Shown here: in pieces, positions 18,094 to 43,157 of the stretch
Numbering within the stretch: the stretch's first letter is position 1
Layout: every line of letters starts with the position of its first letter
Virus record (IMG/VR): IMGVR_UViG_3300045988_105924
Span: 6,565 to 70,564 of that record
Direction: 5' to 3' (one strand)
Source of the DNA: a virus
DNA: 64,000 nt
The notes under the pieces: model-generated
Databases searched by the model: none
What the model saw: only the letters and a program-made list of their open reading frames with translations
Told to the model about the DNA's origin: nothing
Made by a program: the position numbers and the translations under genes

Positions 18094-18121
18094 TGACTTC
18101 TGCAAGGGTATCCTGTATAAT
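18094..18121 (+). promoter_or_regulatory. consensus sigma70 promoter TTGACT-17-TATAAT, with GTATCCTG directly upstream of the -10 box
   Basis: perfect -35 and -10 hexamers with 17-nt spacer, 44 nt upstream of the MazF-like gene. Confidence 0.7.
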
Positions 18122-18164
18122 ATAGCTATGGAACGGAGCTACACTATTATAGAGGAGAAAGACT

Positions 18165-18584
18165 ATGGATAGTAATATTGACCCAAAGGTCGGAGAGGTT
18201 TGGTTGGTTGATCTATCCAATGCGACAGGTCACCAGCAGCGCGGTATTCGACCGTTTGTTGTGACGAGCAACAACAAGCGCAACTTCTTCAGTCCCACAA
18301 TCAAAGGGAATCCGTTGTCTTCCAGAATATACAAGCGTTCTCCGGTTCATGTCCTGCTCTCAAAGGAAGATTGCGATTTTCTGGATGTTGACAGTATCGT
18401 TCTTTGTGAAGAGACCGATACACTTAACAAAGGACAGTTCATCAAGAAACTTGGTGTCTTATCGGAGCGTCAGATGAATATGATCGCAATGGCAAGATGC
18501 AAGGATGAACCGTTCTTACTCGCAGCATTCCTGAGCGGCGTACAACATACTATGGAATTTCAGAATTTTGCCGCATTTGCTTGA
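18165..18584 (+). CDS. MazF/PemK/Kid-family endoribonuclease toxin-like protein (orphan)
   Basis: GEVWLVDLSNATGHQQRGIRPFVVTS and DSIVLCEETDTLNKGQFIKKLGVLSERQMNMI align to the PemK/MazF signature blocks; SD gaggagaaagact then ATG. Confidence 0.7.
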   Translation: MDSNIDPKVGEVWLVDLSNATGHQQRGIRPFVVTSNNKRNFFSPTIKGNPLSSRIYKRSPVHVLLSKEDCDFLDVDSIVLCEETDTLNKGQFIKKLGVLSERQMNMIAMARCKDEPFLLAAFLSGVQHTMEFQNFAAFA

Positions 18585-18637
18585 TTTTTTATAAGGGTTA
18601 ATGGTACACTACATATAATAAGAAGGAGTGTGCCACT

Positions 18638-19564
18638 ATGCTTACTGAAGAGAAAATCAACGCTTTTGCCGAAAAGTATTCTGATAGAAGCGGTGAGTTT
18701 GTTATATCGACACTTAACCATGTTATGGATTACGAGGCCGAGCGTGGGTATGAGTTGTTTGACTTCACAAAAGATGATTTTGTAAAGATGTTTGCCAAAT
18801 ACAATTGGGTGAATTCAAGTCGGTCGTTCAGAAATGTAAAGTCAATAATTACAGGTTACATCAAAAGTGAGTATCGAGCGAGCATGTATGACTTAGCTGA
18901 ATTCTCGGAGAGCGACGTGAGTTCAGACAATATGTACGAGGACAAGTATTTTGCGTCAGCTGATGAGTTTGTTGATTTCTTGGACAAGTATGAAGAACCA
19001 TATCAGATTCGTATGAACGTGATTGCCGTGCTGTACTGGATTGGTCTTACTTCCGAAGAGGTTTCTAATCTGACAATTAACGATGTTGATTTTGAATCAT
19101 GTACTGTTCTGAATAAGACCGGTGTTGACGCGAGATTGATGAATATCATTAAGCAGTGTTATGAAATGAAACAATACGATGCTCCAAATATGGGAGGATA
19201 CAGAACGTTTTATGTCATAAATGGTGATTACATTCTTCGCAAAACAGAGGATAGAACTGGTGCAGACAGTGATTCAAGAATGTCTACAAATACGATTCAT
19301 AGTTATTTCACGCGCTTGAATGATATTCTCGAAAGAAGATATCATTCAAAGGCTTTAGACCGAAGACATCTGACCAGAAACGGCGAGTATGTCAAGGTTT
19401 ATAACTACTGTAAAACTCATCCAGAATTTAATCTTGCAGAACTTAGTTTCGGAAATGGTAAAGATCCTCTTGCGGACATTATCGGAAGAAAGTGCAGCAA
19501 GGTTGCCTACATTAGTTTCCGGCAAGGATACAAGGGCTGGATCGAATACTTCCACAAAAATTAA
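18638..19564 (+). CDS. hypothetical protein (308 aa)
   Basis: SD aagaaggagtgtgccact then ATG. Confidence 0.55.
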   Translation: MLTEEKINAFAEKYSDRSGEFVISTLNHVMDYEAERGYELFDFTKDDFVKMFAKYNWVNSSRSFRNVKSIITGYIKSEYRASMYDLAEFSESDVSSDNMYEDKYFASADEFVDFLDKYEEPYQIRMNVIAVLYWIGLTSEEVSNLTINDVDFESCTVLNKTGVDARLMNIIKQCYEMKQYDAPNMGGYRTFYVINGDYILRKTEDRTGADSDSRMSTNTIHSYFTRLNDILERRYHSKALDRRHLTRNGEYVKVYNYCKTHPEFNLAELSFGNGKDPLADIIGRKCSKVAYISFRQGYKGWIEYFHKN

Positions 19565-19569
19565 AAACA

Positions 19570-19596
19570 GGGGGCTTCAGCCCCTTGATTTTAACA
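19570..19596 (+). terminator. rho-independent terminator (GGGGC-TTCA-GCCCC then T-tract)
   Basis: GC hairpin followed by ttgattttaa. Confidence 0.65.
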
Positions 19597-19602
19597 TTGT
19601 AA

Positions 19603-19620
19603 CTATATAACACAGGATAC
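19603..19620 (+). promoter_or_regulatory. conserved motif CTATATAACACAGGATAC (copy 1)
   Basis: one of five direct copies, always 13-25 nt upstream of an SD. Confidence 0.6.
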
Positions 19621-19652
19621 AGAAAATAGTATTTGAATGGAGAATGATAACA

Positions 19653-21719
19653 ATGTCTGATTTCAAGAAATTTCGTGCACTGCTGCAGGACCACTTCAAT
19701 GAGATGGTGAAGGGCGAAAGCCCTCTGTTTATCACCGATGCAGACGAGGATGAACTGTATAATCTGTATCTCGACAGCTTCCCAGCTGGCACGAATGAGT
19801 TGTTCCGTAAGCGGCGCGAGTATGACTGTTCCTGCTGCCGCCGTTTCGTAAAGAACATCGGTAAGCTGGTTTCCTTTATGGATGGTCAGATGGTTACCGT
19901 CTGGGATTTCGATACCAAGTCCGATGTTTATCAGCCGGTTGTGGATGCGCTGGCTGCCTATGTGAAAACCTGCGCTGTTGTGAACCCGTATTACGTCAGC
20001 CGCAATATGATCTCTGATAGCAAGTTTGGCACTGAGATGAACTATGAGTATGACGCTGATCATAAGGCGGTTCATACCTGGGATCATTTCGTTGTCGAGA
20101 TTCCTCAGCGGTTCATTGTGCGTCCCGATGACGTACCTACCAAGATGGCTCAGTGGCGTGATTCCGCCAATGTGTTCAAGCGCTCTCTGGAGGAGCTAAC
20201 CATGGATGCCGTGGACACCGTGCTTGAGCTGATTGCGCAGAACAGCCTGTATCGCGGTAAGGAGTTTGAATCTCTGGTTCGTGGCTTCAAAATCGATAAG
20301 CAAGTGTATGATCGTCTGCCTGATGAAAAGAAGTCCGCTTATGTTTGGATGGCTCCCGGCGGAGCTTCGATGAACCGGCTTCGCATCCGCAATACGGCAA
20401 TCGGTACTCTGCTGGTGAACCTGAGCGAGGGCATGGACGTGGATGCTGCTGTGTCTGCGTTTGAGGCCATTGTTGCTCCCGCCAACTATAAGCGTCCTAA
20501 GGCGATTTTTACCAAGAAGATGCTGGAAGACGCACAGAAAACCGTCACTGAGTTGGGCTATATGAACAGTCTGGGTCGCCGGTTTGCTACTCTGGACGAC
20601 ATCACCGTAAATAACGTTTTATTCTGTAACCGAGACGCAGCCCCTCGTATTACTGGCGCTGTGAATCCGTTTGAAGCAATGGCGAAGACTGTCGCAATCG
20701 ATCCTAAGAAGTTCGGCCGCGCAGAGGAAATCGGTATTGATAAGTTTATCAAGGACGTGCTGCCCACCGCGACTGGTCTGGAACTGTTTATGGAGAATCG
20801 GTTTGAGAAGAATATGACGTCTCTGATTGCTCCGCAGGATAAGAACGCGCCGTCTATGTTCAAGTGGGCGAATGGTTTCAGTTGGGCGTATACGGGTAAC
20901 GTGGCTGACAGCCAGATCCGTGAGAACGTCAAGAATGCAGGCGGTAAGGTTGATGGCGTGTTGCGTTTCTCTATTCAGTGGAACGATAAGCAGTGCGAGT
21001 GGGATGGAAATGACCTTGATGCCCACTGTGTTGAACCGAACGACTTTGAGATCTATTTTGGCAACAAACGAGATTGGAGTACTGGTGGCAATCTGGATGT
21101 AGATATTATTCATCCTGATCGCGATGAGGCCGCTGTTGAGAATATTACATGGCCTGACATCAAAAAGATGAAGGATGGTAAATACGAGTTCTTTGTTCAT
21201 TGCTTCTCTAACCGTGGCGGCAAAACCGGCTTCCGCGCAGAGATTGAATTTGATGGTCAAATCTACTCCTTCAATTACAATATTCCGCTGCGTCAGACTC
21301 AGAATGTTTCTGTTGCTACTGTTGTGTTGAATGATGGGCAGTTTACTATTAAGGAACATCTCAATAGTTCTACTTCTTCCCGTGAAATCTGGGGTGTGAA
21401 TTCCAATCAGTTTGTACCGGTGTCCGTAGCAATGTATTCTCCGAACTACTGGGACGAGCAGAGTGGTAACGGTAATCGTCATTACTTCTTCATGCTCAAG
21501 GATTGTGTAAACCCTGAAAAGCCCAATGGATTCTACAATGAATTCCTGAAGGCGGAACTGCTACAGCATAAGCGAGTATTCGAGGCTCTTGGTTCTCAGA
21601 TGGCAGTTCAGTCGGTAGATGACCAGCTGTCCGGCGTTGGGTTCTCTGAGACGAAACATGATTCCTTTGTTGTCAAGGTTCAGGGCGCTACTGAGCGGGT
21701 TCTGAAAGTTGTTATTTAA
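19653..21719 (+). CDS. large protein of unknown function (688 aa), GC-enriched
   Basis: long ORF with a strong C-ending codon bias distinct from flanking AT-rich genes; CSCC cluster near the N-terminus; no P-loop or other recognisable catalytic motif. Confidence 0.65.
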   Translation: MSDFKKFRALLQDHFNEMVKGESPLFITDADEDELYNLYLDSFPAGTNELFRKRREYDCSCCRRFVKNIGKLVSFMDGQMVTVWDFDTKSDVYQPVVDALAAYVKTCAVVNPYYVSRNMISDSKFGTEMNYEYDADHKAVHTWDHFVVEIPQRFIVRPDDVPTKMAQWRDSANVFKRSLEELTMDAVDTVLELIAQNSLYRGKEFESLVRGFKIDKQVYDRLPDEKKSAYVWMAPGGASMNRLRIRNTAIGTLLVNLSEGMDVDAAVSAFEAIVAPANYKRPKAIFTKKMLEDAQKTVTELGYMNSLGRRFATLDDITVNNVLFCNRDAAPRITGAVNPFEAMAKTVAIDPKKFGRAEEIGIDKFIKDVLPTATGLELFMENRFEKNMTSLIAPQDKNAPSMFKWANGFSWAYTGNVADSQIRENVKNAGGKVDGVLRFSIQWNDKQCEWDGNDLDAHCVEPNDFEIYFGNKRDWSTGGNLDVDIIHPDRDEAAVENITWPDIKKMKDGKYEFFVHCFSNRGGKTGFRAEIEFDGQIYSFNYNIPLRQTQNVSVATVVLNDGQFTIKEHLNSSTSSREIWGVNSNQFVPVSVAMYSPNYWDEQSGNGNRHYFFMLKDCVNPEKPNGFYNEFLKAELLQHKRVFEALGSQMAVQSVDDQLSGVGFSETKHDSFVVKVQGATERVLKVVI

Positions 21720-21733
21720 GAGGAGAAATTATT

Positions 21734-22117
21734 ATGGAAAAGAATCTGTTTGAAATTGCAACCCGTAATCGCTATCGCTTCAACTATAAGGGTATTATGA
21801 CTGTTGAAGATCTGTGGGATCTGAGTGTCGAGGCACTAGATGCGATTTTTAAGACCCTGAATCGTCAGAAGAAGACCGCAGACGAAGACTCCTTGCTGGC
21901 TGTTAAGAGTGCCGAAAATACCGAACTGGCAAACAAGATTGAGCTGGTCAAGTATATCGTGTCTGTCAAGCTGGCTGAATCTGAGGCTCGTGTGGATGCA
22001 GCCGAGAAGAAGGCGCAGCGCGATAAGATTATGAAGATTGTGGCAAAGAAGAAGGACAAGGAGCTGGAAGATATGGACGTAGACCAGCTGATGAAGAAGC
22101 TGGAAGAGTTGAACTAA
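21734..22117 (+). CDS. hypothetical coiled-coil protein (127 aa)
   Basis: SD agaggagaaattatt then ATG. Confidence 0.55.
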   Translation: MEKNLFEIATRNRYRFNYKGIMTVEDLWDLSVEALDAIFKTLNRQKKTADEDSLLAVKSAENTELANKIELVKYIVSVKLAESEARVDAAEKKAQRDKIMKIVAKKKDKELEDMDVDQLMKKLEELN

Positions 22118-22136
22118 AATAGACATTTTATCGTGA

Positions 22137-22163
22137 TTTTCGTTAAAATAATTAACGAAAATA
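22137..22163 (+). repeat. perfect 11-bp inverted repeat ATTTTCGTTAA-AATAA-TTAACGAAAAT
   Basis: palindrome read directly; AT-rich, so more operator-like than terminator-like. Confidence 0.6.
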
Positions 22164-22188
22164 CGTTAGAATTTTGAGGTGATTTTTG

Positions 22189-22854
22189 ATGAAAACCTAC
22201 GAAAAAATCGAAACGGTGTTTAATCGTGATATCGAAGGCACTAAAAAGCTGATTATCGGTGATTTTCGTAATGAAACCATTGAGTTCCTACAAAATAATG
22301 AGTGGGAATTTACTGAGAAAGTGGATGGCACGAATGTGCGTGTTTGCTGGGACGGTCATAAAGTCAGCTTTGCCGGACGAACTGAACGTGCCGAACTTCC
22401 TAAGAATTTGGTGGATGCACTAAATGAAATTTTCGGTACTTCTGAAGCAGAGGAATTGTTTGAACAGACTTACGGTGATAAAGAAGTAATCCTCTTTGGA
22501 GAGGGTTATGGTGGCAAAATTCAAGGATGTGGTCATGGATACCGACCTGATGAGTGGTTCATCTTGTTCGATGTCCTGGTTGGTGATAACTACCAGAGTA
22601 GAGAGTGGGTTGAAAAGACTGCTCAGATGTTTGGTATCCAAGTAGTTCCTATTTTGTTTACAGGGACGATTCGAGACGGTATCAAGTTTGTGTGTCAACA
22701 TCCGAAGTCTACGGTTTCGATTGATGACATTTATATGGAAGGTCTGGTTGGTCGTCCAAAGGTTGAGTTGAAAGACCGCAGAGGTAATCGAGTAATTGTC
22801 AAAATCAAGTGGAATGACTTCAAGGATATCGCTGATACGCTTGGTAATGAGTAA
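22189..22854 (+). CDS. ATP-dependent RNA ligase-like nucleotidyltransferase (Rnl2/DRB0094 family, minimal NTase domain)
   Basis: motif I EKVDGTN (KxDGxN), motif III FGEGYGG, motif IV EGLVGRP, motif V KIKW. Confidence 0.65.
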   Translation: MKTYEKIETVFNRDIEGTKKLIIGDFRNETIEFLQNNEWEFTEKVDGTNVRVCWDGHKVSFAGRTERAELPKNLVDALNEIFGTSEAEELFEQTYGDKEVILFGEGYGGKIQGCGHGYRPDEWFILFDVLVGDNYQSREWVEKTAQMFGIQVVPILFTGTIRDGIKFVCQHPKSTVSIDDIYMEGLVGRPKVELKDRRGNRVIVKIKWNDFKDIADTLGNE

Positions 22855-22923
22855 TTAAGACATTTTCTTCCTCCGAAAATGCCCTGAGCGGGGCTGACAG
22901 CCGGGAAAGACCGGCAATTATAT

Positions 22924-23008
22924 GCCAAGGTGCTGCAAATGGGAGACAGGGCGAGCCCAAACCTCGCTGTGGAAACACATGCGGTTTCGAATACCGTCCT
23001 TGGCACCA
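22924..23008 (+). tRNA. tRNA-Leu (anticodon CAA), type II
   Basis: hand-folded cloverleaf: acceptor GCCAAGG/CCTTGGC, 3-bp D stem, anticodon arm GCGAG-CCCAAAC-CTCGC, variable arm TGTG-GAAA-CACA, T arm GCGGT-TTCGAAT-ACCGT, encoded CCA. Confidence 0.75.
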
Positions 23009-23048
23009 GAGCCCGAACGTCCACCTATTAGATATTGGAGGCAAATTC

Positions 23049-23930
23049 ATGAAAAGAATCGACAAATTTACAAAAAAAGAAATTGAGCAAGTTTTTAGAG
23101 AGAGTAAAAGCTTAGATGCTGTTGCAAGAAAACTTGGATATAAAGACAACAGCGGTGGAACTCACTCGGCTTTAAAGAAATATGTTGAAGAGAATAATAT
23201 AGACATATCCCATTTTACTGGGCAAGGCTAGAACAAAGGTAACTTTGATTTGTCAAAATTTACAAAGGGAGTATCTTTTAGCAGTCAGTTAAGGAAAGCC
23301 TTGCTTTACATAAGACCTCATAAATGTGAATGTTGTGGCAATACAGAATAGTTGGGACATGAAATTCCATTGGAGGTTCATCATGTAGATGGAGATAGGC
23401 TTAACAATGAGTTGAGCAACCTACAACTTTTATGTCCAAATTGTCATGCTCAAACAGATAATTACTGCGGAAAAAATATAAGATACAAAGAGGCCGTTCC
23501 AGAAGAAAAGTTGATAGAAGCACTTAAAATATCACCAAATATAAAACAAGCACTTTCTAAAATTGGTATAAATTATTCCGCGAAGAGTTGGTACGACAAA
23601 GCTAAAAGATTGATGGAAGAAAACAATATCGAATTTAGTAAAAAGGAAGTTTCAGTTCCTGTTAAGAAAAGAGAACATAGATGCAGACGATGCTCTGTGT
23701 GTGGCAAACCTTTACAATACAATACAAAAGGAACGTTGTGTAAAGAATGCTATAGGCATTCGCCAGATAGAAGGAATGTTGAATGGCCATCAAAAGAAAC
23801 TTTATTGAATGATATAACAACTATGTCTTTCTTAAAGGTTGGTGAAAAATATGGAGTGACTGATAATGCCGTTAGAAAATGGTGTAGATATTATGGCCTC
23901 CCGGCAACTAGGAAAGAATTAAGAAAATAA
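23049..23930 (+). CDS. HNH homing endonuclease, one 294-codon frame containing two in-frame TAG codons (23229-23231, 23349-23351)
   Basis: single frame 23049..23930; the HNH core PHKCECCGNTE-[TAG]-LGHEIPLEVHHVDGDRLNNELSNLQLLCPNCH is contiguous only if TAG is translated; no frameshift is needed; SD ttggaggcaaattc then ATG. Confidence 0.55.
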
Positions 23931-23936
23931 TACACG

Positions 23937-23962
23937 TGGCGAGATAACTCGCCACATTATAT
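23937..23962 (+). terminator. hairpin GTGGCGAG-ATAA-CTCGCCAC plus A/T tail
   Basis: perfect 8-bp stem downstream of the HNH gene. Confidence 0.55.
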
Positions 23963-24047
23963 GCTACCGTGGTGCAATTGGCGAGACACAGTTGCCTTAA
24001 AAGCAACCGTCCGAGAGGAATTGAGGGATCATACCCCTCCGGTAGCA
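23963..24047 (+). tRNA. tRNA-Leu (anticodon UAA), type II
   Basis: acceptor GCTACCG/CGGTAGC, 3-bp D stem, anticodon arm GTTGC-CTTAAAA-GCAAC, 15-nt variable arm, T arm GAGGG-ATCATAC-CCCTC (atypical T loop). Confidence 0.6.
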
Positions 24048-24053
24048 TCATAT

Positions 24054-24127
24054 CCAGAATGTAGTGTAATGGCAGCACGCTGCGTTTGGGACGCAGAAGA
24101 GCGATTCGAATTCGACATTTTGGACCA
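24054..24127 (+). tRNA. tRNA-Pro-like (anticodon UGG), non-canonical
   Basis: acceptor CCAGAAT/ATTTTGG, anticodon arm CTGCG-TTTGGGA-CGCAG, T loop TTCGAAT, but only 3 Watson-Crick pairs in the T stem and an irregular D arm; CCA encoded. Confidence 0.4.
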
Positions 24128-24150
24128 GTGGAGTATTCCACTTTCTTTTC
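24128..24150 (+). terminator. hairpin GTGGA-GTAT-TCCAC followed by TTTCTTTTC
   Basis: stem-loop plus T-run immediately after the tRNA 3' end. Confidence 0.5.
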
Positions 24151-24223
24151 ATGAATACCTTCCTATTATTCTTGGCTCTCCAAAAAAACGGAGCAGTAGG
24201 ACGCAGCAAGCCAAGTTACATAA

Positions 24224-24313
24224 TGAGGGTTCGCCAAGTGGTAAATGGCATCTGGCTTTGACCCAGACAGCGTGCTTTATAGCCGATCGTCGGTTCGATC
24301 CCGACACCCTCAA
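24224..24313 (+). tRNA. tRNA-Gln-like (anticodon UUG) with an atypical 21-nt extra region
   Basis: acceptor TGAGGGT/ACCCTCA, D arm GCCA..TGGC, anticodon arm TCTGG-CTTTGAC-CCAGA, canonical T arm GTCGG-TTCGATC-CCGAC; a 21-nt variable-position insert is unusual for Gln. Confidence 0.45.
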
Positions 24314-24318
24314 TTTAT

Positions 24319-24407
24319 GGACACGTGATGGAATCGCAGACATGAAAGATTTAGACTCTTTTGCCGTTGATAGCGGTGTGCCCGTTCAAATCGGGTCGTG
24401 TCCACCA
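24319..24407 (+). tRNA. tRNA-Leu (anticodon UAG), type II
   Basis: acceptor GGACACG/CGTGTCC, 3-bp D stem ATG/CAT with long D loop, anticodon arm AAAGA-TTTAGAC-TCTTT, 18-nt variable arm, T arm GCCCG-TTCAAAT-CGGGT, CCA encoded. Confidence 0.6.
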
Positions 24408-24513
24408 TTATCAACTTATGGTTGCGTACCGTTTGTTGATATCCTTTGATTGCCACTATTATTCCCGGCTCGCCAGTGATGGTGCAGTAGTGCTTTGTAA
24501 GCTGGGTTTTCAT

Positions 24514-24588
24514 GCAGCGGTCGTACAACGGCTAGTACATCAGCCTTCCAAGCTGAGGATGAGGTTTCGACTACCTTTCGCTGCTCCA
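24514..24588 (+). tRNA. tRNA-Gly (anticodon UCC)
   Basis: acceptor GCAGCGG/TCGCTGC, D arm GTAC..GTAC, anticodon arm TCAGC-CTTCCAA-GCTGA, T arm GAGGT-TTCGACT-ACCTT, CCA encoded. Confidence 0.75.
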
Positions 24589-24777
24589 ATCTCGTATGGG
24601 TAGGATCTTTGGCGGTCAGATCCGGCCGCGCCTGTGCGAGATACCACCCCGAAAGGGGCGAGATATAGGAAATGTGCATCGCTGTTATTCCTTCCTCGTC
24701 TATATGATATAGATGCAATAGTGTTTTATAAGGAAGGTGCCCAGTTGAATAGTTGCAGCTATTTAACTGGTTTTTAT

Positions 24778-24858
24778 GGGACATTATCTCAATTGGTTAG
24801 AGAACTCAGCTCATAACTGAGCATATGTATCACGGTTCAAGTCCGACATGTCCCACCA
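24778..24858 (+). tRNA. tRNA-Met/fMet-like (anticodon CAU)
   Basis: acceptor GGGACAT/ATGTCCC, D arm TCTC..GAGA, anticodon arm CTCAG-CTCATAA-CTGAG, T loop GGTTCAAGTCC but a weak 3-bp T stem; CCA encoded. Confidence 0.5.
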
Positions 24859-24964
24859 GCCCGAAAGGGCGTACATAAAACCCGCTAGAACTTTTGTTTT
24901 ATAAGCGATGAAATAATATGACGTTAATACGTCTATTATTTTTCGCTAATTTTTAAAGTTCTAG

Positions 24965-24982
24965 CTATATAACACAGGATAC
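24965..24982 (+). promoter_or_regulatory. conserved motif CTATATAACACAGGATAC (copy 2)
   Basis: identical 18-mer to copy 1, followed by SD aaaaggaggag. Confidence 0.6.
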
Positions 24983-24999
24983 GAAAAGGAGGAGTTGTA

Positions 25000-25689
25000 A
25001 TCTTACGAGTTTTAATTGCCTGTGAGGAATCACAGGAAGTTTGTAAAGCATTTCGATTGCTTGGTCATGAAGCGTATTCTTGTGATATTCAACCTCCGTC
25101 CGGTGGTCACCCAGAGTGGCATATTTTGGGTGACGCACTGGCAGCTCTACAGGGTGGGCAGATAGTCACAATGGATGGCACACAACACTATGTTGAGCAG
25201 TGGGATCTATTGATTGCACATCCTCCGTGTACATATTTATCAAACGCTGGCGCACGATGGTTGTGGGCTGGACACAAATTGAATCAAGAACGGTATCAAC
25301 AGGGATTGGAAGCTAAGGAATTCTTTATGGCGTTTTACAACGCACCGATCAAACACATTTGTGTTGAAAATCCAATTCCGAGTGCTGTTTATGAAATGCC
25401 AAAACCATCGCAGATGATTCAGCCATATGAATTTTATGGTAAGGACCATCCATGGACAAAGAAGACCTGTTTATGGCTGAAAGGACTACCTAATCTAGTT
25501 CCTGTTGAAGCAGTTGAACCACAGGGTCCGTATTGTCCTTGCGGAACTTCGGCCAATAAAGGCAATGTAAGAAATCGTGGCGCAGCTAAACGTGGTGAGG
25601 ATGCAAAGAATAGGGCTAAGACCTTCCATGGGATTGCTCGTGCTTTTGCAGAACAGTTCTCAGAGTACATTGAAAATGAGGTGAATTGA
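25000..25689 (+). CDS. DNA C5-cytosine methyltransferase-like protein lacking the FxGxGG SAM loop; start codon uncertain
   Basis: motif IV LIAHPPCTYLS (PC) and motif VI ICVENP (ENV) in C5-MTase order; the motif I position reads RVLIACEESQEV instead of the Gly loop; strong SD aaaaggaggag at 24984-24994 but the first canonical in-frame start is TTG 25057; ATC 25000 or ATT 25015 would be needed to include the conserved N-terminus. Confidence 0.4.
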   Translation: MLRVLIACEESQEVCKAFRLLGHEAYSCDIQPPSGGHPEWHILGDALAALQGGQIVTMDGTQHYVEQWDLLIAHPPCTYLSNAGARWLWAGHKLNQERYQQGLEAKEFFMAFYNAPIKHICVENPIPSAVYEMPKPSQMIQPYEFYGKDHPWTKKTCLWLKGLPNLVPVEAVEPQGPYCPCGTSANKGNVRNRGAAKRGEDAKNRAKTFHGIARAFAEQFSEYIENEVN

Positions 25690-26231: not shown

Positions 26232-26257
26232 AAGGCTAATTCAAACAAGAGGTGACA

Positions 26258-26451
26258 TGATGAACAGCAAAATTCCTATCAATGTAACTATCGATCACGG
26301 CTCCTTGAGCCTTCCGGCAAGTCCTATCTTCCAGAAGGATAAGAACACGTATCTCTGTCCGTTTTGTGTGACGAAGCTGGAAAAGTTCGAGTGTGAGTGT
26401 TCTGATTGTCATCACAAGATGGATTGGAGTAAATTTGCCAAAAAGGAGTGA
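26258..26451 (+). CDS. zinc-ribbon small protein
   Basis: SD aagaggtgac then ATGATG; CPFC...CECSDCHH. Confidence 0.5.
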
Positions 26452-26456
26452 TTCCT

Positions 26457-26675: not shown

Positions 26676-26686
26676 TGCCTATGAAT

Positions 26687-26959: not shown

Positions 26960-26976
26960 AAATGGGGTGATGCCGT

Positions 26977-28438: not shown

Positions 28439-28455
28439 TTTTTAGTCTTAGCTAA

Positions 28456-28469
28456 GTAATACAGGATAC
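28456..28469 (+). promoter_or_regulatory. conserved motif variant GTAATACAGGATAC (copy 3)
   Basis: shares the ATACAGGATAC core with the other copies; SD ataaggag follows. Confidence 0.5.
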
Positions 28470-35764: not shown

Positions 35765-35775
35765 GGTGATTTGAT

Positions 35776-36117
35776 ATGGGGAATTGGAAACGTGCTATCG
35801 CCATCGATTTTGATGGCACTCTCTGTGAGAATAATTATCCTGATATCGGTGAGCCAAACTGGAATATCATTTATCAAGCAATCCAGGAACAGAAGCACGG
35901 TGCTGGGTTGATTCTCTGGACTTGCCGGGAAGGAAAGCTTCTGTATGATGCGATGGAAGCTTGTTTTGATTGGGGAATCCAGTTTGATGCCATCAATGAA
36001 AGTCTTCCTGAGTGGAAAGAGCATTTTGGTACTGCACCTAGAAAGGTCGGTGCTGATGAATATTGGGATGATAAGGCCAGAACTGTAAAGAATGGAGAGT
36101 TGGTTGACAATGACTAA
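35776..36117 (+). CDS. small HAD-superfamily phosphatase-like protein
   Basis: motif I IAIDFDGTL (DxDGT); SD gaggtgatttgat then ATG. Confidence 0.45.
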   Translation: MGNWKRAIAIDFDGTLCENNYPDIGEPNWNIIYQAIQEQKHGAGLILWTCREGKLLYDAMEACFDWGIQFDAINESLPEWKEHFGTAPRKVGADEYWDDKARTVKNGELVDND

Positions 36118-36415
36118 TGCGAATAATTACGTTTTATCATTAAATCTATTGGATGGTGTACATCAATCACTCTGGAATGCTCTTAAAAGCTTGGAATTGT
36201 TTCGACAAGGAACTGCGTTTAATCAGGTTTTGAATGATGATACGCATATTATTGAACCGGATGAATTGACTTATGTTCTTGATAAATTTGCAGAACAGCA
36301 TCCTGATTGGAAAATCTGTATTGAAACTGACCATGGGACGGTTAGTGAAAAACTCAAAATGAATCATAATTTCTACGAAGGAATGGGTAATATGATTGTC
36401 CTTGATTTTGAATGA
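36110..36415 (+). CDS. hypothetical protein (101 aa)
   Basis: ATG 36110 overlapping the upstream end. Confidence 0.45.
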   Translation: MTNANNYVLSLNLLDGVHQSLWNALKSLELFRQGTAFNQVLNDDTHIIEPDELTYVLDKFAEQHPDWKICIETDHGTVSEKLKMNHNFYEGMGNMIVLDFE

Positions 36416-36666
36416 AGATGACAAAACGACAATATAGACATAACAGAATTGATTATCGCACATATAATTACACACTCAAGAAATATCACAACTTACACAG
36501 AGAAATCTACGCTAAAAATGCAAGAGATGCAGTTAAAATGCTAAGAAGTAAAGAATGTAATCGTGAGTTTGAGATTGTTAAAGTCTGGTTTGTTGATATT
36601 TTTGGTGATAGAAACGATAGATTTTATCCACGAACTTATGTGATTGACAAAGAAGATTATGAGTGA
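36412..36666 (+). CDS. hypothetical basic protein (84 aa)
   Basis: ATGA overlap. Confidence 0.45.
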   Translation: MKMTKRQYRHNRIDYRTYNYTLKKYHNLHREIYAKNARDAVKMLRSKECNREFEIVKVWFVDIFGDRNDRFYPRTYVIDKEDYE

Positions 36667-36678
36667 GGTGAGGACGCA

Positions 36679-37437
36679 ATGGCGGTATACATCACGGGTG
36701 ATATTCATGGTGATTTTAATCGGTTTTTAGAATTGGAAAAGTTTTGCCATGAACACAATCTTGGAAAGAATGACTGGATTGTCTGCCTTGGCGATGTCGG
36801 TTTGAACTACTACGGTAAGGATGATCCTCGTGAATGGAGTATCAAGACTATCGCCGCAGATATTCCTGCGAATCTGTTTTGTATTCATGGCAACCACGAA
36901 CGCCGCCCGTCTCGTAAGGATGGTTATAGAACAAAGGAAATCAGTGGAGATATTTGTAGTAAGGTGTGGCATGACTCACATTATCCCAATCAGTATTTCG
37001 CTATTGATGGTGAGGTTTACCAGATTCTTTCCGGCGTAGAGATGTTGAATTGTCTTGTTTGTGGTGGAGCTTATTCTGTGGATAAGTATTATCGACTAGA
37101 GTGGGGATATAATTGGTGGACGGATGAGCAGCCGAATGAGAAGACTAAGAAAAAGATCTGGAATATTACACATGACCATCAAATCGATGATATTGATGTT
37201 ATGCTCACGCATACCTGTCCATTCCGGTTCATTCCAACTGAATTGTTTATCGGTGGTATTGATCAAAGCACAGTGGATCAGTCAACTGAAATATTCTTTG
37301 ATAATATATACGAATGCTATCCTAACGATCGTAAACCATTCTGGTACTTCGGCCATTTTCATGGCAACAAGTATACCGATGACTATGTGATGCTTTTCGA
37401 CGATATTATTAAGTTTGGAAATAAGAGGAAGGAGTAA
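36679..37437 (+). CDS. calcineurin-like metallophosphoesterase
   Basis: GDIHGD, GNHE and GHFH motifs; SD gaggtgaggacgca then ATG. Confidence 0.65.
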   Translation: MAVYITGDIHGDFNRFLELEKFCHEHNLGKNDWIVCLGDVGLNYYGKDDPREWSIKTIAADIPANLFCIHGNHERRPSRKDGYRTKEISGDICSKVWHDSHYPNQYFAIDGEVYQILSGVEMLNCLVCGGAYSVDKYYRLEWGYNWWTDEQPNEKTKKKIWNITHDHQIDDIDVMLTHTCPFRFIPTELFIGGIDQSTVDQSTEIFFDNIYECYPNDRKPFWYFGHFHGNKYTDDYVMLFDDIIKFGNKRKE

Positions 37438-37439
37438 GA

Positions 37440-40400
37440 ATGTCAAGTAGTTTACACACGCACTCGAATTACAGTCTGCTAGATGGGTACTCTTCTCCTG
37501 AAGAAAATTTAAAAAGAGCATCTGAACTCGGTTTAAAGGCCGTTGCTATTACGGAGCATGGTGAGGTAACAAGCTGGCCGTACTACTCAGAACTGAAGGA
37601 CAAGTATCCGAATGTAAAACTTCTTTATGGTATTGAGGCATACGAGTGTGAAAACAGGGAAGTTAAGGATAAGAACAGTAAATACTGGCACCTGATTATT
37701 ATCGCAAAGAATGAGGCTGGCCGTCAGGCTGTTAATCGCTTGTCTACACTCGGTCATCTTCATGGTTTTTATAGCCGTCCTCGTATCACAAAAGAGGATA
37801 TCGCTAAGGAAGATACGAATAATTTGATTATCCTGTCTGCTTGTTTAGCAAGTAGGCTATCCAGAACAGATGATTATAACGCTTGTATTAAGCTGGTTCA
37901 AGAGTATAAGAGCTTATTTCCTCACTATTATCTTGAAGTTCAGGCTCATGCAAACAGTGAACAGGCAAAATACAATCAAAAAATCATGCGGCTGGCGAAT
38001 GATACTCATACAAAAGTAGTTGTCACAAACGATGTTCACGCTGCCACCAAAGAAGATCTTTATTATCAAGATTATTTCCTTCGTATCGCTCATGATACGG
38101 AAACCGCCGCAGAAATCTATGAAGGATGCTACTTCATGTCTCGTGAGGAACAGCATAGAGTTCTTGATAGCCAGATTGGATACGAAGCGGCAGAATGGTG
38201 TATCAATAATACTGACGAGGTTGCCGACCTGTGTGATGATGTAGATATGCCTTGGCATGAACCTGAACTTCCCAAAATTGAGATTCCGCCACAGTATTCT
38301 AATTCGGCAGCTTACCTGAAAGACCTTGTAAAAGAGGGATGGAAGAAACGTGGAATTGATAAGTTTGATGCAGAAAAGCAGAAAATCTATCGCAAACGTG
38401 TTGATGATGAGTTGTTTGTCATCGAGAAGAAAGACTTCTGTGACTACTTTTTGATTCTAGTCGATTACATCAACTGGTGTAAACAGAACGATGTTATTGT
38501 TGGCCCAGGGCGAGGTTCTGCTGCTGGTTCACTTGTATGTTACTTGATTGGTATTACGCAGCTTGACTCTATCAAATACGAGCTTGATTTCGGACGATTC
38601 CTTACTATTGAACGAAAGGACCTTCCTGACGTTGATGTGGACGTTAGCGACCGTGCGAAGGTTGTTGAGTATTTGACACAGAAGTATGGAGAAGATCGAG
38701 TGGTTCAGGTTATGAATATCGTGTACACTACTCCGGTCACTTCGATTCAAGACGTTGGTAAAGTTCTCGGCTTTCCGTATGCTGAAATAAGAAAAATCAG
38801 CGAGAAGTTTGTTCAAAAGACATGGAAGGATTGCCTTGATGCCAACCCGGAAGTGGCTGAAAATCCGAAGTATAAGGAACTACTTGACATCGCAAGTCAT
38901 ATCAATGGTCGCCCACGAGGATATGGTATTCATGCTGGCGGTGTTATTGTCTGCCGACATCCTTATTATGAGTATATCGGCATTCGGCACGGCACTGACG
39001 GAGAACATGTTATTTCTGTTGATAAAGTGATGGACGAGAAGATTGGACTCGTCAAGTTTGATATTCTTGGTGTTGCGTCGCTGGTTGCTATCGATGAGGC
39101 AAAACGTGAAGACAATATTCCAGACTGGGAGATTGATATTAACAATCCAGAGTTTGAAAACGATAAGGCAACTTACGATTTGATTTGCTCCGGGCGGACA
39201 GACAATCTATTCCAGATTGAGTCTTCGGGAATGAAGGATCTGGTTGCACAGCTTCAGCCGAGGTCGATTGAAGAGCTATCCGCTTTGATTGCACTTTATC
39301 GCCCTGATGCAATGCCGTCCATTCCTACATACGTTGATTGCAAATACCATCCTGAGCACATTCATTATTTTCATCCTGATATGGAACCGATTTTCCGCAG
39401 CACATACGGTGTGAATATTTATCAGGAACAGAGTATGAAGCTCACGAAGGTGTTCGGTGGTCGAAACGATGCCGGAGCTGACAGAATGCGTAAGTGCTTG
39501 GCAAAGAAAAAACCTGAGAAAGTCAAGGAAGAGGTCGAGCTTCTTTACGATGAGATTCTTGCAAACGGATACGATAAAGCAACCGCCGAATATATTTGCG
39601 ATGAACTGTCAACGAAGGGCGGCTACGGATTTAACAAGTCACATTCTCAGGCGTATGCCGTTATCTGCCTTCAAACAGCATACTTAAAAACACACCATCC
39701 GCTTGCATTCTTTAAGGCTATGCTAAACCTGAATAAAGCAAAGGTCGGTAAGGTAAACAAGATTATGGTGGATGCACGGAGTTTTGGTGTTCAGGTTCTT
39801 CCTCCGAGTATCAATCGTTCCGGCATGGATTTTACTGTATCGAATGGGAAAATTCTATTTGGCCTATCCGCAATCGGTGGTATTGGTGATACGCTTGCCG
39901 ATGCTATTATTGCCGAAAGAGATAAGAATGGAAAGTTCAAGGGTCTTGATGACTTCACGAGCCGTGTCCGTGCAACAAAGGCACAGATCATCGCACTGGT
40001 TAAGTCTGGTGCCATTCCTACAAAGAATAAACGAGCATTCTTGGAAAAGTACATTGCGAGTGGTTTGGAGCAATCTGAGTTCAAACCGGTAAGCACACTT
40101 CCTACAAAAGCTGTCCTGCTGAGTAAGTGGGATATTGATACGGAGCATTATAAGGTTGGTAAGAAGGTTGATAAAGAAACTGTCCTACGAATCTATAACG
40201 AAAAACGCCGTGTTGTATATGAAACTGAAAAGCTCAAGAAAAAAGAAGCATACATGACTGAGCAGTCAGAGAAGTATTTGAAGGACGAGCAATTCTGGGA
40301 GTTCCAGACATTACAGACGTTCATCATCGATAAGAATCCGTTTGAAAAGGCATACGAGTACATTCAGGATTTCTCAGAGATTGAGAGTGGCGACTCTTGT

Positions 40401-40655
40401 GTGCTGGTTGGTATTATCGCAAAGATTCAGAAGAAGAAAACAAAGACTGGTATGCAGTTTGCATTTGTAAATCTGTACTCTGGTGATGGTATCATTGAGC
40501 TAACTGTGTGGCCGAGAATCCTTTCTGATTATCAGGATTTGATTGTTAAGGGAAGTCAGGTAGCTGTGCTTGGTAAGAAGGAAGATGATTCGCACGTTAT
40601 TGCAAATGACTTCAAGCCTTACAAGCAATGGCTGCATGATAGAGAGATAAGGTAA
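37440..40655 (+). CDS. dnaE: DNA polymerase III alpha subunit (DnaE-type, PHP domain N-terminus)
   Basis: PHP motif HTHSNYSLLDG...ITEHG; 1071 aa; catalytic fingers and OB region length consistent with DnaE. Confidence 0.8.
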   Translation: MSSSLHTHSNYSLLDGYSSPEENLKRASELGLKAVAITEHGEVTSWPYYSELKDKYPNVKLLYGIEAYECENREVKDKNSKYWHLIIIAKNEAGRQAVNRLSTLGHLHGFYSRPRITKEDIAKEDTNNLIILSACLASRLSRTDDYNACIKLVQEYKSLFPHYYLEVQAHANSEQAKYNQKIMRLANDTHTKVVVTNDVHAATKEDLYYQDYFLRIAHDTETAAEIYEGCYFMSREEQHRVLDSQIGYEAAEWCINNTDEVADLCDDVDMPWHEPELPKIEIPPQYSNSAAYLKDLVKEGWKKRGIDKFDAEKQKIYRKRVDDELFVIEKKDFCDYFLILVDYINWCKQNDVIVGPGRGSAAGSLVCYLIGITQLDSIKYELDFGRFLTIERKDLPDVDVDVSDRAKVVEYLTQKYGEDRVVQVMNIVYTTPVTSIQDVGKVLGFPYAEIRKISEKFVQKTWKDCLDANPEVAENPKYKELLDIASHINGRPRGYGIHAGGVIVCRHPYYEYIGIRHGTDGEHVISVDKVMDEKIGLVKFDILGVASLVAIDEAKREDNIPDWEIDINNPEFENDKATYDLICSGRTDNLFQIESSGMKDLVAQLQPRSIEELSALIALYRPDAMPSIPTYVDCKYHPEHIHYFHPDMEPIFRSTYGVNIYQEQSMKLTKVFGGRNDAGADRMRKCLAKKKPEKVKEEVELLYDEILANGYDKATAEYICDELSTKGGYGFNKSHSQAYAVICLQTAYLKTHHPLAFFKAMLNLNKAKVGKVNKIMVDARSFGVQVLPPSINRSGMDFTVSNGKILFGLSAIGGIGDTLADAIIAERDKNGKFKGLDDFTSRVRATKAQIIALVKSGAIPTKNKRAFLEKYIASGLEQSEFKPVSTLPTKAVLLSKWDIDTEHYKVGKKVDKETVLRIYNEKRRVVYETEKLKKKEAYMTEQSEKYLKDEQFWEFQTLQTFIIDKNPFEKAYEYIQDFSEIESGDSCVLVGIIAKIQKKKTKTGMQFAFVNLYSGDGIIELTVWPRILSDYQDLIVKGSQVAVLGKKEDDSHVIANDFKPYKQWLHDREIR

Positions 40656-40667
40656 GAGGGTTGTAAG

Positions 40668-42998
40668 GTGGCAGATAAGAAATTTAATGAAAATATGATC
40701 CGTTGCTATATCAGGATAAAACGAGTCTTTTATCCGAAAGATGGGAAGGAGGTGGAGCCCGGCGGCTTCGCCACTTTCTCTGCCGAGGTGGTAAAAGTCA
40801 AGCAGGGAAATCCTGTTATGAGTCGATACAGTGACCTCCGGTTAAAGGGCAACGTTCCTAGCCTCGATATGAATAAAACTTATTCGTTCTGTGGTGAGTA
40901 TGTTCATCATGAAAAGTTTGGTGACCAGTATAAAATCATTTATATGAATGAGTTTCAAGAGATTACTGACCCGGAAGAACAGAAAAGCTTTCTCCATTAT
41001 ATCCTGACCGACCATCAGTTTGAGATACTTTATGAAGCATTCGAAAATCCGTATGAGATTATCAAGAATGGTGATATCAAGTCGCTTTGCACTGTTAGTG
41101 GTATTACGGAAGGCAGAGCTCAAAAGATCATTGATACTTATGAAAACAACATTGATAACAGTGAGGCGTACACAAAGCTAATTGAGTACGGTCTGACCCC
41201 TAGTGCTATTGAAAAGCTTGTCCGTCAATATCATGGTGCAGACACTCTGGTGAGAAAGATTGAAGAGAATCCTTACGTCCTGATTGACGATGTGTATGGC
41301 ATCGGCTGGAAGAAGGCTGACGCTCTTGCTTTGAATATGGGTTTAAAGCACAATTCGCAATTCAGAATCGAAGCTTACGTCATGCACTTTCTCGCCGCCC
41401 GCGCCGAGGAAGGCAACTCTATCATCCCGGCAAACCAGACAATCAATAGCTGCATCAAGGAACTTGAATTGGATGAGGGAGACCAAGAGGTCATCAAGAG
41501 GGCACTTTTTCATTTGCATGATGTCCGTGAAACACTTTGGTGGAGCGATGACCGTCAGGAATTTGCTTTAACTAGAGTGTGGAATCTGGAAGATAGTATT
41601 GCGAAGGAAATCAAGCGTCTGGCGGATGCTCCTGTTGAGCCGATTGGTCGAAATATGGATGCAGCAATCAATGAGGCCGAAGATGCGCTTGGCATCGAGT
41701 ATACCGAAGAGCAGAGAGATGCCATTAAAAAGGTATGCTCTAATAATATTGCTATCGTCACAGGTCTTGGTGGATGCGGTAAAAGTACCGTTGTCGCTGG
41801 TGTTCTAAAGGTTCTTCGTGGGAAGTCTTTCGCTCAGACTGCACTCTCTGGACGTGCCGCAGCTCGTATGCAGGAGATTACTGGTCAGGACGGTAAGACC
41901 ATTCATCGTCTTCTTGGTTATGATATTGAGAATGGTGGTTTCATTCATAACAAGGATAATCCTCTTGAAGAAGATATTATCATTTTGGATGAGACTTCTA
42001 TGGTTGGAGCTCAGTTGTTCTATGATTTGATTCAGGCAATTGAAACAGGCAAGCGATTCATCATGATTGGTGATGACGGCCAGCTTGAGAGTATCGGTAT
42101 GTGCAACATCTTCAAGGATATGCTTGCATCTAAGGTTGTTCCTGTGGCTCGTTTGACTAAGATCCATCGTCAGGCAGCTAAGTCTGCAATTATTACGGAG
42201 AGCATCAAGGTTCGTAACGCTACACAGTTGGTTTCTTATGGCTGGGCTGGCAATGAGGTTCGTGGTGAACTTCGTGATCTGGAACTTGATATCTATAAGG
42301 ACGCAAGTGAGTCGTTCAACCACATCATCAATCAATACCGTACCTTATATAATAAGGTAGGGAGTGATAGTGCGAAGATCCAGATTGTACTTCCACAGAA
42401 GCTGCGTGGCAGTATCTGTACCTATGAAGTCAATAATGCCATTCAGGAAATTGTGAATCCAAGTCGTGGTCAAGCAGAAGCAAAGGTCACAATCTATGGT
42501 GATGGCAAGGATAGGGTGTATACTCTGCGTGAGGGTGATCAGGTCATCATCAACAAGAACAACTATGAGCTTCACACATACAATCTCAAGACAAAGAAAA
42601 AAGAAGAGAAGTGTCCGGTGTTCAACGGAAACCGTGGCATTATTCGAAAGATTGAGAGTAGTTTTATCCTGGTTGATTTTGACCAGTGGGGAACGATTTT
42701 CATTCCTCATTACTTTGGTGGGAATAACATTTGGACAACGCTTGAACTTGCTTATGCTTTAAGTTGTCATAAGTTGCAGGGCAGTGAGGCTCCGTATGTG
42801 ATTGTTGGCATGGACAACTCTGCGTACCTGATGTTGACGAGAGAATGGCTCTATACGGCCATCACTCGTGCCAAGAAGTATTGTGTGATTTGTGCCGAAA
42901 CTCATGCTCTTGATCGGGCTGTAAAGACTTCGAGAGTTCCATATAAGCGGACGTTCTTGAAGGAATTTTTACGGAAAGAATTTGCAGAAAAGCATTGA
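40668..42998 (+). CDS. RecD/Dda-like superfamily 1 DNA helicase (AAA_30 plus UvrD_C_2)
   Basis: Walker A GLGGCGKST, Walker B ILDETSMV, C-terminal CHKLQGSEAPYVIV...TAITRAK. Confidence 0.7.
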   Translation: MADKKFNENMIRCYIRIKRVFYPKDGKEVEPGGFATFSAEVVKVKQGNPVMSRYSDLRLKGNVPSLDMNKTYSFCGEYVHHEKFGDQYKIIYMNEFQEITDPEEQKSFLHYILTDHQFEILYEAFENPYEIIKNGDIKSLCTVSGITEGRAQKIIDTYENNIDNSEAYTKLIEYGLTPSAIEKLVRQYHGADTLVRKIEENPYVLIDDVYGIGWKKADALALNMGLKHNSQFRIEAYVMHFLAARAEEGNSIIPANQTINSCIKELELDEGDQEVIKRALFHLHDVRETLWWSDDRQEFALTRVWNLEDSIAKEIKRLADAPVEPIGRNMDAAINEAEDALGIEYTEEQRDAIKKVCSNNIAIVTGLGGCGKSTVVAGVLKVLRGKSFAQTALSGRAAARMQEITGQDGKTIHRLLGYDIENGGFIHNKDNPLEEDIIILDETSMVGAQLFYDLIQAIETGKRFIMIGDDGQLESIGMCNIFKDMLASKVVPVARLTKIHRQAAKSAIITESIKVRNATQLVSYGWAGNEVRGELRDLELDIYKDASESFNHIINQYRTLYNKVGSDSAKIQIVLPQKLRGSICTYEVNNAIQEIVNPSRGQAEAKVTIYGDGKDRVYTLREGDQVIINKNNYELHTYNLKTKKKEEKCPVFNGNRGIIRKIESSFILVDFDQWGTIFIPHYFGGNNIWTTLELAYALSCHKLQGSEAPYVIVGMDNSAYLMLTREWLYTAITRAKKYCVICAETHALDRAVKTSRVPYKRTFLKEFLRKEFAEKH

Positions 42999-43023
42999 CA
43001 ATTATGTGCGTATCCTGTATAAT
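42995..43023 (+). promoter_or_regulatory. consensus sigma70 promoter TTGACA-17-TATAAT, with GTATCCTG directly upstream of the -10 box
   Basis: perfect hexamers; the -35 overlaps the helicase stop codon. Confidence 0.65.
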
Positions 43024-43036
43024 ATAGTTATAAAAA

Positions 43037-43060
43037 GTCTCCACCCGGAGGCTTAAAATT
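43037..43060 (+). terminator. hairpin GTCTCC-ACCC-GGAGGC followed by a T-rich tract
   Basis: 6-bp GC stem plus ttaaaattctctcttt. Confidence 0.5.
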
Positions 43061-43070
43061 CTCTCTTTAA

Positions 43071-43088
43071 CTGTATAATACAGGATAC
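43071..43088 (+). promoter_or_regulatory. conserved motif variant CTGTATAATACAGGATAC (copy 4)
   Basis: TATAAT followed by ACAGGATAC. Confidence 0.55.
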
Positions 43089-43090
43089 GG

Positions 43091-43128
43091 GAAAGAAATG
43101 GCTTGCTCGTAACGACAAGCCTTTCTTT
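43091..43128 (+). other. long hairpin AAAGAAATGGCTTG-loop-CAAGCCTTTCTTT
   Basis: 13/14-bp inverted repeat between two motif copies; may act as an attenuator or terminator. Confidence 0.5.
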
Positions 43129-43138
43129 ATTAGCTATA

Positions 43139-43157
43139 ACTATATAACACAGGATAC
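43139..43157 (+). promoter_or_regulatory. conserved motif CTATATAACACAGGATAC (copy 5)
   Basis: identical to copies 1 and 2; 13 nt upstream of the ligase ATG. Confidence 0.6.

Follow-up and report, generated by a model that had tools for sequence, protein, structure and literature searches.

A repeated 21-bp element in a putative SPbeta-like Faecalibacterium phage as the probable operator of an integrase-fold repressor

The repeated element and its setting

We analysed a 64,000-nucleotide stretch of viral DNA, positions 6,565 to 70,564 of IMG/VR record IMGVR_UViG_3300045988_105924 (hereafter the window, with coordinates counted from its first letter). A short element, here called the box, recurs in it between positions 18108 and 43157, and a 308-residue protein encoded among its copies is proposed below as its binder. 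All window genes lie on the + strand, with strong Shine-Dalgarno sequences throughout, and 7/7 box copies are intergenic.

The first copy (18108..18128, reversed, reading TAGCTATATTATACAGGATAC on the minus strand) covers the spacer, the -10 and the start region of the promoter of a two-gene operon. This promoter, a consensus sigmaA promoter TTGACT-17-TATAAT at 18093..18121 on the + strand, has GTATCCTG as its final 8 spacer bases and drives 18165-19564, i.e. a PemK/MazF-like toxin gene (18165..18584, +; Pfam PemK_toxin, E 2.8e-19) as the operon's first gene and then the gene of the 308-residue protein (18638..19564, +). The latter is thus placed between the reversed copy at 18108 and a forward copy at 19600, with the reversed copy in its own operon's promoter. 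No obvious antitoxin gene stands beside the PemK/MazF-like gene. An intrinsic terminator (19563..19592, +; -17.3 kcal/mol, z -4.5) closes the operon, and the next box (19600..19620, +) follows it directly, between the terminator and the Shine-Dalgarno sequence of a gene read as encoding 688 or 691 residues. The second forward copy (24962..24982, +) comes after a tRNA cluster and a terminator at 24905-24946 and stands ahead of a methyltransferase operon, while the third (28449..28469, +, TAGCTAAGTAATACAGGATAC) begins 10 nt past the stop codon of a YorF-like gene and heads a 14.5-kb replication operon; no terminator precedes this copy and its inner hexamer, AGTAAT, is not -10-like. Downstream of a RecD2-like gene, a second consensus sigmaA promoter, TTGACA-17-TATAAT (42995..43023, +), carries GTATCCTG in its spacer and has the second reversed box (43010..43030, -) embedded in it. 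Two forward copies complete the set. The copy at 43068..43088 (+), which the original prediction had placed before a gene, is flanked by a small hairpin at 43037-43052 and followed by a strong terminator-like hairpin at 43091-43128; the copy at 43137..43157 (+) has the DNA ligase start codon 13 nt on. The forward copies at 19600, 24962 and 43137 follow the strong terminators 19563-19592, 24905-24946 and 43091-43128, respectively. A Shine-Dalgarno sequence does follow within a few bases at four of the five forward copies; the accompanying distance of 13-25 nt to a gene start has to be corrected, the start codon being 32 nt away for the 688-residue gene and 75 nt away for the methyltransferase open reading frame. 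The region 43024-43128, between the promoter at 42995 and the ligase gene, with its small hairpin, box and strong terminator-like hairpin, folds at -38.5 kcal/mol (z -3.8) and may be the source of a short RNA of ~100 nt or an attenuated leader.

That the element recurs is borne out by counting: ACAGGATAC has seven exact matches in the window (five on +, two on -) against 0.29 expected from a dinucleotide-preserving null, and 0/100 shuffles reach seven. Exact matches to the 18-mer CTATATAACACAGGATAC lie at 19603, 24965 and 43140 (the last had been given as 43139, one base off), and the four further copies differ from it by 2-3 mismatches. A motif search of the window was made with a weight matrix trained on sites from the phage family; it recovers exactly these seven window sites, at 27-36 bits, and none between 8 and 27 bits. 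The exact 18-mer is also found in >112 IMG/VR stretches, on contigs mostly of 115-140 kb from human gut samples. When 125 distinct sites from these relatives were aligned, conservation extended over 21 positions (-12 to +8) and dropped to background level immediately outside both edges. The conserved unit, TAGCTA-N6-ACAGGATAC, is thus 21 nt rather than the 15-18 nt first described, with the consensus T-A-(G/A)-C-T-A / T-A-T-(A/T)-A-(C/T) / A-C-A-G-G-A-T-A-C. Written as TAGCTA-TATAAY-ACAGGATAC, it is asymmetric and has no dyad. Its inner hexamer is the least constrained part: TATGAC, TATTAC, AGTAAT and CGTGAC all occur in relatives with both outer blocks intact, and the commonest hexamer of forward copies is TATAAC, with a final C. 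The two minus-strand copies indeed read GTATCCTG abutting TATAAT on the + strand, inside the two consensus promoters, as predicted. The palindromic frame GTATCCTG-TATAAT-ACAGGATAC built on them dissolves, since no site has both halves and the frame is a composite of two orientations.

Outside this phage family little was found. A search of the published literature for the 9-mer returned primers only, and a nucleotide search of a phage collection with the window returned two unannotated faecal contigs only. The 18-mer has two matches in species-representative genomes (1.2e12 positions, ~17 expected by chance), both without similarity to the window; these are chance matches. A distant relative, L127 (labels of this form denote loci of relatives, which were oriented by GC skew), has a polymerase 60% identical and carries neither the box nor the variant box described below; its control region is too different to align.

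Relative to sigmaA promoters, the boxes of the window and its relatives take up at least four geometries, in both orientations. A reversed box may cover the spacer, the -10 and the start site of a consensus promoter; a forward box may lie just downstream of a promoter, in relatives starting 10 nt after an extended -10, TGgTATAAT; two boxes may stand tail to tail around TTGAAT-17-TATAAT in a divergent control region of relatives, where one overlaps the -35 of the leftward promoter; and a forward box may follow a terminator, just ahead of a Shine-Dalgarno sequence. A -35/-10 pair at 16-18 bp spacing is present for the two reversed copies. The forward copies have neither a -35 at 15-18 bp spacing nor a TG extension, and their hexamer often ends in C or is degenerate. 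TAGCTA was also considered as a -35 with its -10 downstream of the box and was rejected, nothing -10-like being found there. The reversed copies of relatives form three classes with unrelated flanks, in which TTGAC always stands exactly 9 nt from the box; the 9 spacer bases outside the box vary and the 8 inside it never do. The third class is located just upstream of window position 1, with a forward copy 64 nt later and then the window's first gene. These varied registers fit a binding site, not a promoter element. A promoter class with a conserved initial transcribed sequence, as originally proposed, is not what at least four registers against the sigmaA hexamers and a degenerating inner hexamer (CGTGAC, AGTAAT, TATGAC) describe, nor does the box serve as a fixed -10 centre, given forward copies that mostly read TATAAC and lack a -35 partner. 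Nearby, two tandem sigmaA promoters at 17649-17707, upstream of gene 17730-18074, arose from a direct duplication of ACAAAAAGATGT(G)TATAATATAT and carry no box.

The 308-residue protein and its alleles

The gene at 18638-19564 lies in the middle of this arrangement, and its product was compared with proteins of known structure. A profile of 39 homologues, from an alignment that reaches down to ~20% identity, was compared with PDB sequences; across residues 1-289 it matched YopR (E 1.4e-9) and MrpR (E 7.5e-9), and XerA came next (E 0.007). An hhalign comparison of the protein's profile to SPbeta YopR gave 96.7% probability, E 3.6e-10, over 264 columns. The Pfam family MrpR_N_CB scores 21.4 bits on the 308-residue protein, below its cut-off of 27, and 27.7 bits on a 78% homologue; MrpR_C_cat appears among the precomputed Pfam annotations. 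Significance was obtained only with the diverse alignment: comparisons with MrpR that used the single sequence or a shallow alignment did not reach it, and tblastn of the repressor against phages gave nothing significant. A Foldseek search with the AlphaFold model returned as its top six hits phi3T SroF bound to DNA, SroF-Sar, MrpR and YopR structures, ahead of Cre and XerA. By these profile comparisons we class the protein as a homologue of the MrpR/YopR/SroF family, with an integrase-like core-binding domain and a catalytic-like domain. In SPbeta, MrpR/YopR serves as the master repressor; its fold is that of a tyrosine recombinase but recombinase activity is lacking, and the family binds a non-palindromic box that is repeated at about ten promoter regions (PMC10516654). 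SroF of phi3T closes as a monomer, with both domains, around a 26-bp non-palindromic box of which it reads 24/26 bp, and related phages have distinct repressor specificities (bioRxiv 10.1101/2025.11.27.690993). No Cheo-type LexA box turned up in the intergenic regions read, and no Sar-like small antirepressor was identified, although none was sought systematically. Some members of the clusters of homologues of the 308-residue protein sit on contigs as long as 784 kb, a sign of integrated prophages.

We then compared boxes between phages that differ in this gene. A profile search yielded a repressor allele 35-37% identical, and a further search placed its relatives on contigs with the same gene order; an IMG/VR search for the variant repressor found nothing. 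In three such loci, L129, L130 and L131, identity is 35% for the repressor, 94% for PemK and 70-86% for the other neighbours (amino acids; L129 against the window). The nucleotide alignment of L129 to the window begins inside the reversed box, spans PemK and ends at the repressor gene start. In all three loci both boxes that flank the repressor gene carry the same five changes, C4G, T9G, G17A, A20T and C21T: the promoter copy passes from GTATCCTG-TATAAT-ATAGCTA to AAATTCTG-TATACT-ATACTTA and the post-terminator copy from TAACTATATAACACAGGATAC to GTAGTATAGTAAACAGAATTT, and the two new boxes match each other at 18/19 positions. The variant box of the P0268 allele type is AGTATAGTAAACAGAATTT, and ACAGAATTT is the P0268/P0269-allele counterpart of ACAGGATAC. 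L128, which carries a third repressor allele, shows yet another, related sequence at its forward site. Three repressor alleles thus pair with three box variants at the sites next to the repressor gene. The converse case is provided by L122, which keeps ACAGGATAC with a repressor at 74% identity and a second integrase-like gene at only 49%. The box therefore follows the repressor allele: PemK is 94% identical despite a changed box, and the 279-residue product of the second integrase-like gene is 49% identical despite a kept box, so that specificity follows the MrpR-like gene and not PemK or the 279-residue gene. The PemK/MazF-like gene retains 94-96% identity despite the swap of repressor allele. 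The 279-residue gene itself (11799-12638; Pfam Phage_integrase) is a tyrosine-recombinase-like gene of the early region and shows 47-49% identity in relatives independently of the box.

The phage and the distribution of its boxes

The replication genes of the window comprise a Sak4-like ATPase, a DnaB-like helicase, a primase, a RecJ-like nuclease, a PolIII-alpha-type polymerase, a RecD2-like helicase and the DNA ligase; nucleotide-metabolism genes and seven tRNAs are also present. Relatives have Pfam YorF beside the replication module and, on their other arm, a 927-residue YonO-type protein with the motif NGADFDGD and the Pfam family RdRP, followed by YonK, YonJ, YonG, terminase and YonD homologues. 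Genes of this YonO-type single-chain RNA polymerase lie at 4906-7689 in L019, 8882-11665 in L021 and 10001-12784 in L126. The gene order of the window and its relatives is the same as in the Bacillus prophage SPbeta, so the phage can be assigned to the SPbeta-like temperate phages, and we take it to be one of Faecalibacterium; a polymerase fragment is labelled Faecalibacterium prausnitzii in one source. The YonO-type polymerase has thousands of homologues in gut metagenomes, one of them labelled Oscillospiraceae bacterium.

Relatives carry further boxes on the other genome arm, including one before the YonO-like polymerase gene. No box occurs in L126 12784-22784, the 10 kb after the polymerase gene that hold YonK, YonJ, YonG and terminase, or in the window from 44 to 64 kb. 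A distribution over early, replication, ligase, repressor and polymerase operons, with none in late genes, matches that of a master repressor.

Several other features were recorded. The tRNA cluster (22924-24858; Leu x3, Pro, Gln, Gly, Met) is split by an HNH-endonuclease-like open reading frame at 23352-23930, and in L122 the matching region has a TnpB/Cas12f-like gene. The 691-residue protein at 19644-21719 (phrog_1735) has ~55% identical homologues in Bacillus cereus-group myoviruses and others in hundreds of Salmonella, Klebsiella and other phages; close relatives have a Pnkp-like kinase/phosphatase/RNA-ligase protein in this slot. A second motif, TAACGTRTYAWCG, often a palindrome AACG-N6-CGTT, has six matches in the window against 0.44 expected, mostly intergenic and in the nucleotide-metabolism region (22154-22168, 52076-52090, 55276-55288 and 59621-59633, also 11604 and 61095). 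Relatives have it between their YonO-like polymerase arm and late genes as well (L126 ~13540, L007 ~10880), and it is found in the distant L127 as well; it may be the site of a separate regulator or a late promoter. An 11-bp inverted repeat, ATTTTCGTTAA...TTAACGAAAAT (22130-22165), overlaps a promoter-like site upstream of an RNA-ligase-like gene, and this segment is 98% identical in L129 amid diverged surroundings. A Tn916-Xis-like gene (62566-62760) lies near the window end.

Mechanism, alternatives and known systems

Taken together, the extent and positions of the element, a protein homologous to known repressors and a box that varies with the repressor allele lead us to consider that the 21-bp element is probably the operator box of the phage's master repressor, an MrpR/SroF-type integrase-fold protein encoded at 18638-19564. 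We infer physical binding, a monomer stoichiometry, repression and a role for the post-terminator forward copies from this. By analogy with phi3T SroF, one repressor monomer would close its two domains around one asymmetric box, and a monomer wrapped on such a box would account for an oriented element without dyad symmetry. The boxes would be placed where early or lytic transcription must be held off. On the reversed boxes, which span the spacer, -10 and start site of sigmaA promoters, the repressor would exclude RNA polymerase, and where the reversed box lies in the promoter of the repressor's own operon this would give autoregulation. On the forward boxes, a protein encircling the DNA could either occlude a weak initiation site or block elongation into early, accessory, methyltransferase, replication and ligase operons and, in relatives, into the YonO-like RNA polymerase operon. 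The original suggestion of an operator, and its association with promoters, are thus supported. The dimeric regulator on a palindrome that went with it is not: the element is asymmetric, its two proposed halves never occur at one site, and the family of the candidate binder binds as a monomer (bioRxiv 10.1101/2025.11.27.690993).

Several observations weigh against this assignment. The co-varying boxes examined both flank the repressor gene, and a cassette exchange could move gene and sites together; the site upstream of the methyltransferase in L129 matches the new box imperfectly; confidence in the AlphaFold model is low (mean predicted local distance difference test score 60.7), with template-modelling scores to SroF and MrpR of only 0.27-0.34; the phage family encodes its own RNA polymerase, in relatives and outside the window; and the forward copies at 19600, 24962 and 43137 stand after strong terminators without any other recognisable promoter. 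The genes behind the post-terminator boxes could be served by weak -35-less initiation inside the box, by read-through of the terminator or by an unseen factor. It is rather improbable, in our estimate, that these forward boxes are initiation sites dependent on a box-bound phage protein, with the integrase-fold protein or a partner repressing at reversed boxes and licensing the -35-less promoters at forward ones. We know of no description of such a dual repressor/activator role in the MrpR/YopR/SroF family.

The last two of these observations are also the starting point of a different explanation, in which the element is a promoter for a phage polymerase or specificity factor (the YonO-like enzyme or an unseen sigma), forward copies starting middle transcripts and reversed copies firing antisense and occluding early sigmaA promoters. 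The forward copies point toward genes, stand a few bases ahead of Shine-Dalgarno sequences and, with no -35 and a poor -10, suit sigmaA badly; the 21-bp length and sharp edges of the element resemble promoters of single-polypeptide polymerases, and the family does encode the 927-residue polymerase with NGADFDGD. We nevertheless regard this explanation as unlikely, and keep it mainly because 19600, 24962 and 43137 follow strong terminators with no other visible promoter. YonO in SPbeta starts a late operon upstream of YonK, and the late genes are the YonO regulon (PMC5467207). Here no copy is found in the 10 kb of YonK-to-terminase late genes or in the window at 44-64 kb, so the phage-specific promoter class of the original prediction lacks the copies ahead of late genes that would be expected for the phage's own YonO-like polymerase. 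The polymerase gene itself lies behind a copy, which raises a bootstrapping problem, and among the window genes no RNA polymerase and no sigma factor was found. Neither position nor orientation against transcription units is fixed across the four or more geometries: in each of three independent contexts the reversed copies stay in register with the sigmaA hexamers, they would fire into upstream genes, and one copy lies 10 nt inside a sigmaA transcript. The co-variation of the box with the adjacent repressor allele is also not what a polymerase promoter leads one to expect.

Three further explanations were weighed. An ordinary family of host sigmaA promoters, with conserved spacer and discriminator, spread by duplication and without a dedicated binder, would explain why a TATAAT-like hexamer can be read on the + strand in every copy and why two copies are textbook promoters; we think it very unlikely, as forward copies have no -35 or TG extension and mostly read TATAAC, the hexamer decays to AGTAAT, TATGAC and CGTGAC between invariant flanking blocks, spacer bases drift outside the box and the eight inside never do, and the concerted changes of the variant phages fall outside the -10. 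Two integrase-like genes, copies in both orientations and an inverted pair (18108/19600) that brackets an integrase-fold gene bring to mind a recombination site, at which the 308- or the 279-residue protein as an active tyrosine recombinase would invert or delete DNA between copies. The odds of this are slimmer again. At the position of the first catalytic arginine all alleles of the 308-residue protein have GLT or GLS and SPbeta YopR has GLA, with GLR in Tn1549 Int (in the low-confidence model of the catalytic-like domain the other catalytic positions have no reliable placement); no site is built as two inverted arms with a 6-8 bp crossover spacer between them; the genes between copies keep their order and orientation in all relatives examined; and the 279-residue integrase-like protein falls to 47-49% identity without any change of box. 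The element might finally act as RNA, as a leader motif or a cleavage site, e.g. for the co-encoded PemK/MazF-like endoribonuclease. PemK/MazF relatives cleave ACA-containing sites, the PemK-like gene adjoins, and the motif contains ACA and sits in 5' leaders. Reversed copies would yield the complementary RNA, however, the box lies partly upstream of any plausible start site, and PemK is 94% identical where the box changes, so that we give this explanation hardly any credence.

The closest known system is the repressor MrpR (YopR) with the repeated element SPBRE in the Bacillus subtilis prophage SPbeta. The SPBRE boxes were located in the SPbeta record: they lie inside TAGACA-17-TATAAT promoters, where the box fills the spacer, closely behind a -10 and ahead of the Shine-Dalgarno sequence, or immediately ahead of a -35. 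The genes that follow them include yonP-yonO, yopM (mrpR operon), yorE (replication operon) and yorM (next after the polymerase gene), and the late arm has none. Both phages therefore combine a repressor homologous at profile level with a repeated non-palindromic intergenic box inside, after or before sigmaA promoters, and in both the boxes stand at the repressor's own operon, the replication and phage RNA polymerase operons and the gene after the DNA polymerase, the late arm being free of them. Two positions are syntenic, one ahead of the yorE-L replication operon and one immediately behind the polymerase gene, and the genome architecture is shared, with a YonO-like polymerase, YonK/J/G/D, YorF and a yorG-L-like replication module. 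The box sequences are unrelated, however (ACAAATACAAATAATATGTATA in SPbeta, TAGCTATATAAYACAGGATAC here), the repressor proteins are ~16% identical and the hosts differ (Bacillus and Faecalibacterium). The repressor here is co-transcribed with a PemK-like toxin, and most SPbeta boxes belong to full promoters (TAGACA-17-TATAAT) whereas most forward boxes here have no -35.

SroF of phi3T, with its antirepressor Sar (PDB 9rd5, 9rgl), is the best structural match to the 308-residue model. A monomer encircling an asymmetric AT-rich box would fit an oriented 21-bp element whose two conserved blocks are spaced by about one helical turn, and related phages likewise show distinct repressor-box specificities; the box here is shorter in conserved length and G+C-richer at one end, and its binder is predicted. 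With CI/Cro of the lambda type the system shares operators clustered at early promoters, a repressor that would be autoregulated and heteroimmune alleles, but lambda operators are dyad-symmetric and bound by helix-turn-helix dimers, whereas the element here is asymmetric and the candidate has an integrase fold. Promoters of T7-type polymerases resemble the box in their ~20 bp, near-identical copies, orientation with the genes and placement after terminators. They differ in that no T7-type polymerase was found here, copies also lie reversed inside sigmaA promoters and none precedes late genes.

To our knowledge, the recognition of monomeric repressors with an integrase fold dates from 2023-2025 and is confined to SPbeta-like phages of Bacillus. 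The boxes described here would amount to a full set of candidate operators for a repressor of this type, in an abundant family of phages of Faecalibacterium, itself a major commensal of the human gut. The natural pairs of repressor and box alleles offer material for a recognition code of the fold and for predicting immunity groups of gut prophages. The SPbeta genome plan, with a YonO-type polymerase, a replication module and a master repressor with repeated boxes, would thus extend well beyond Bacillus.

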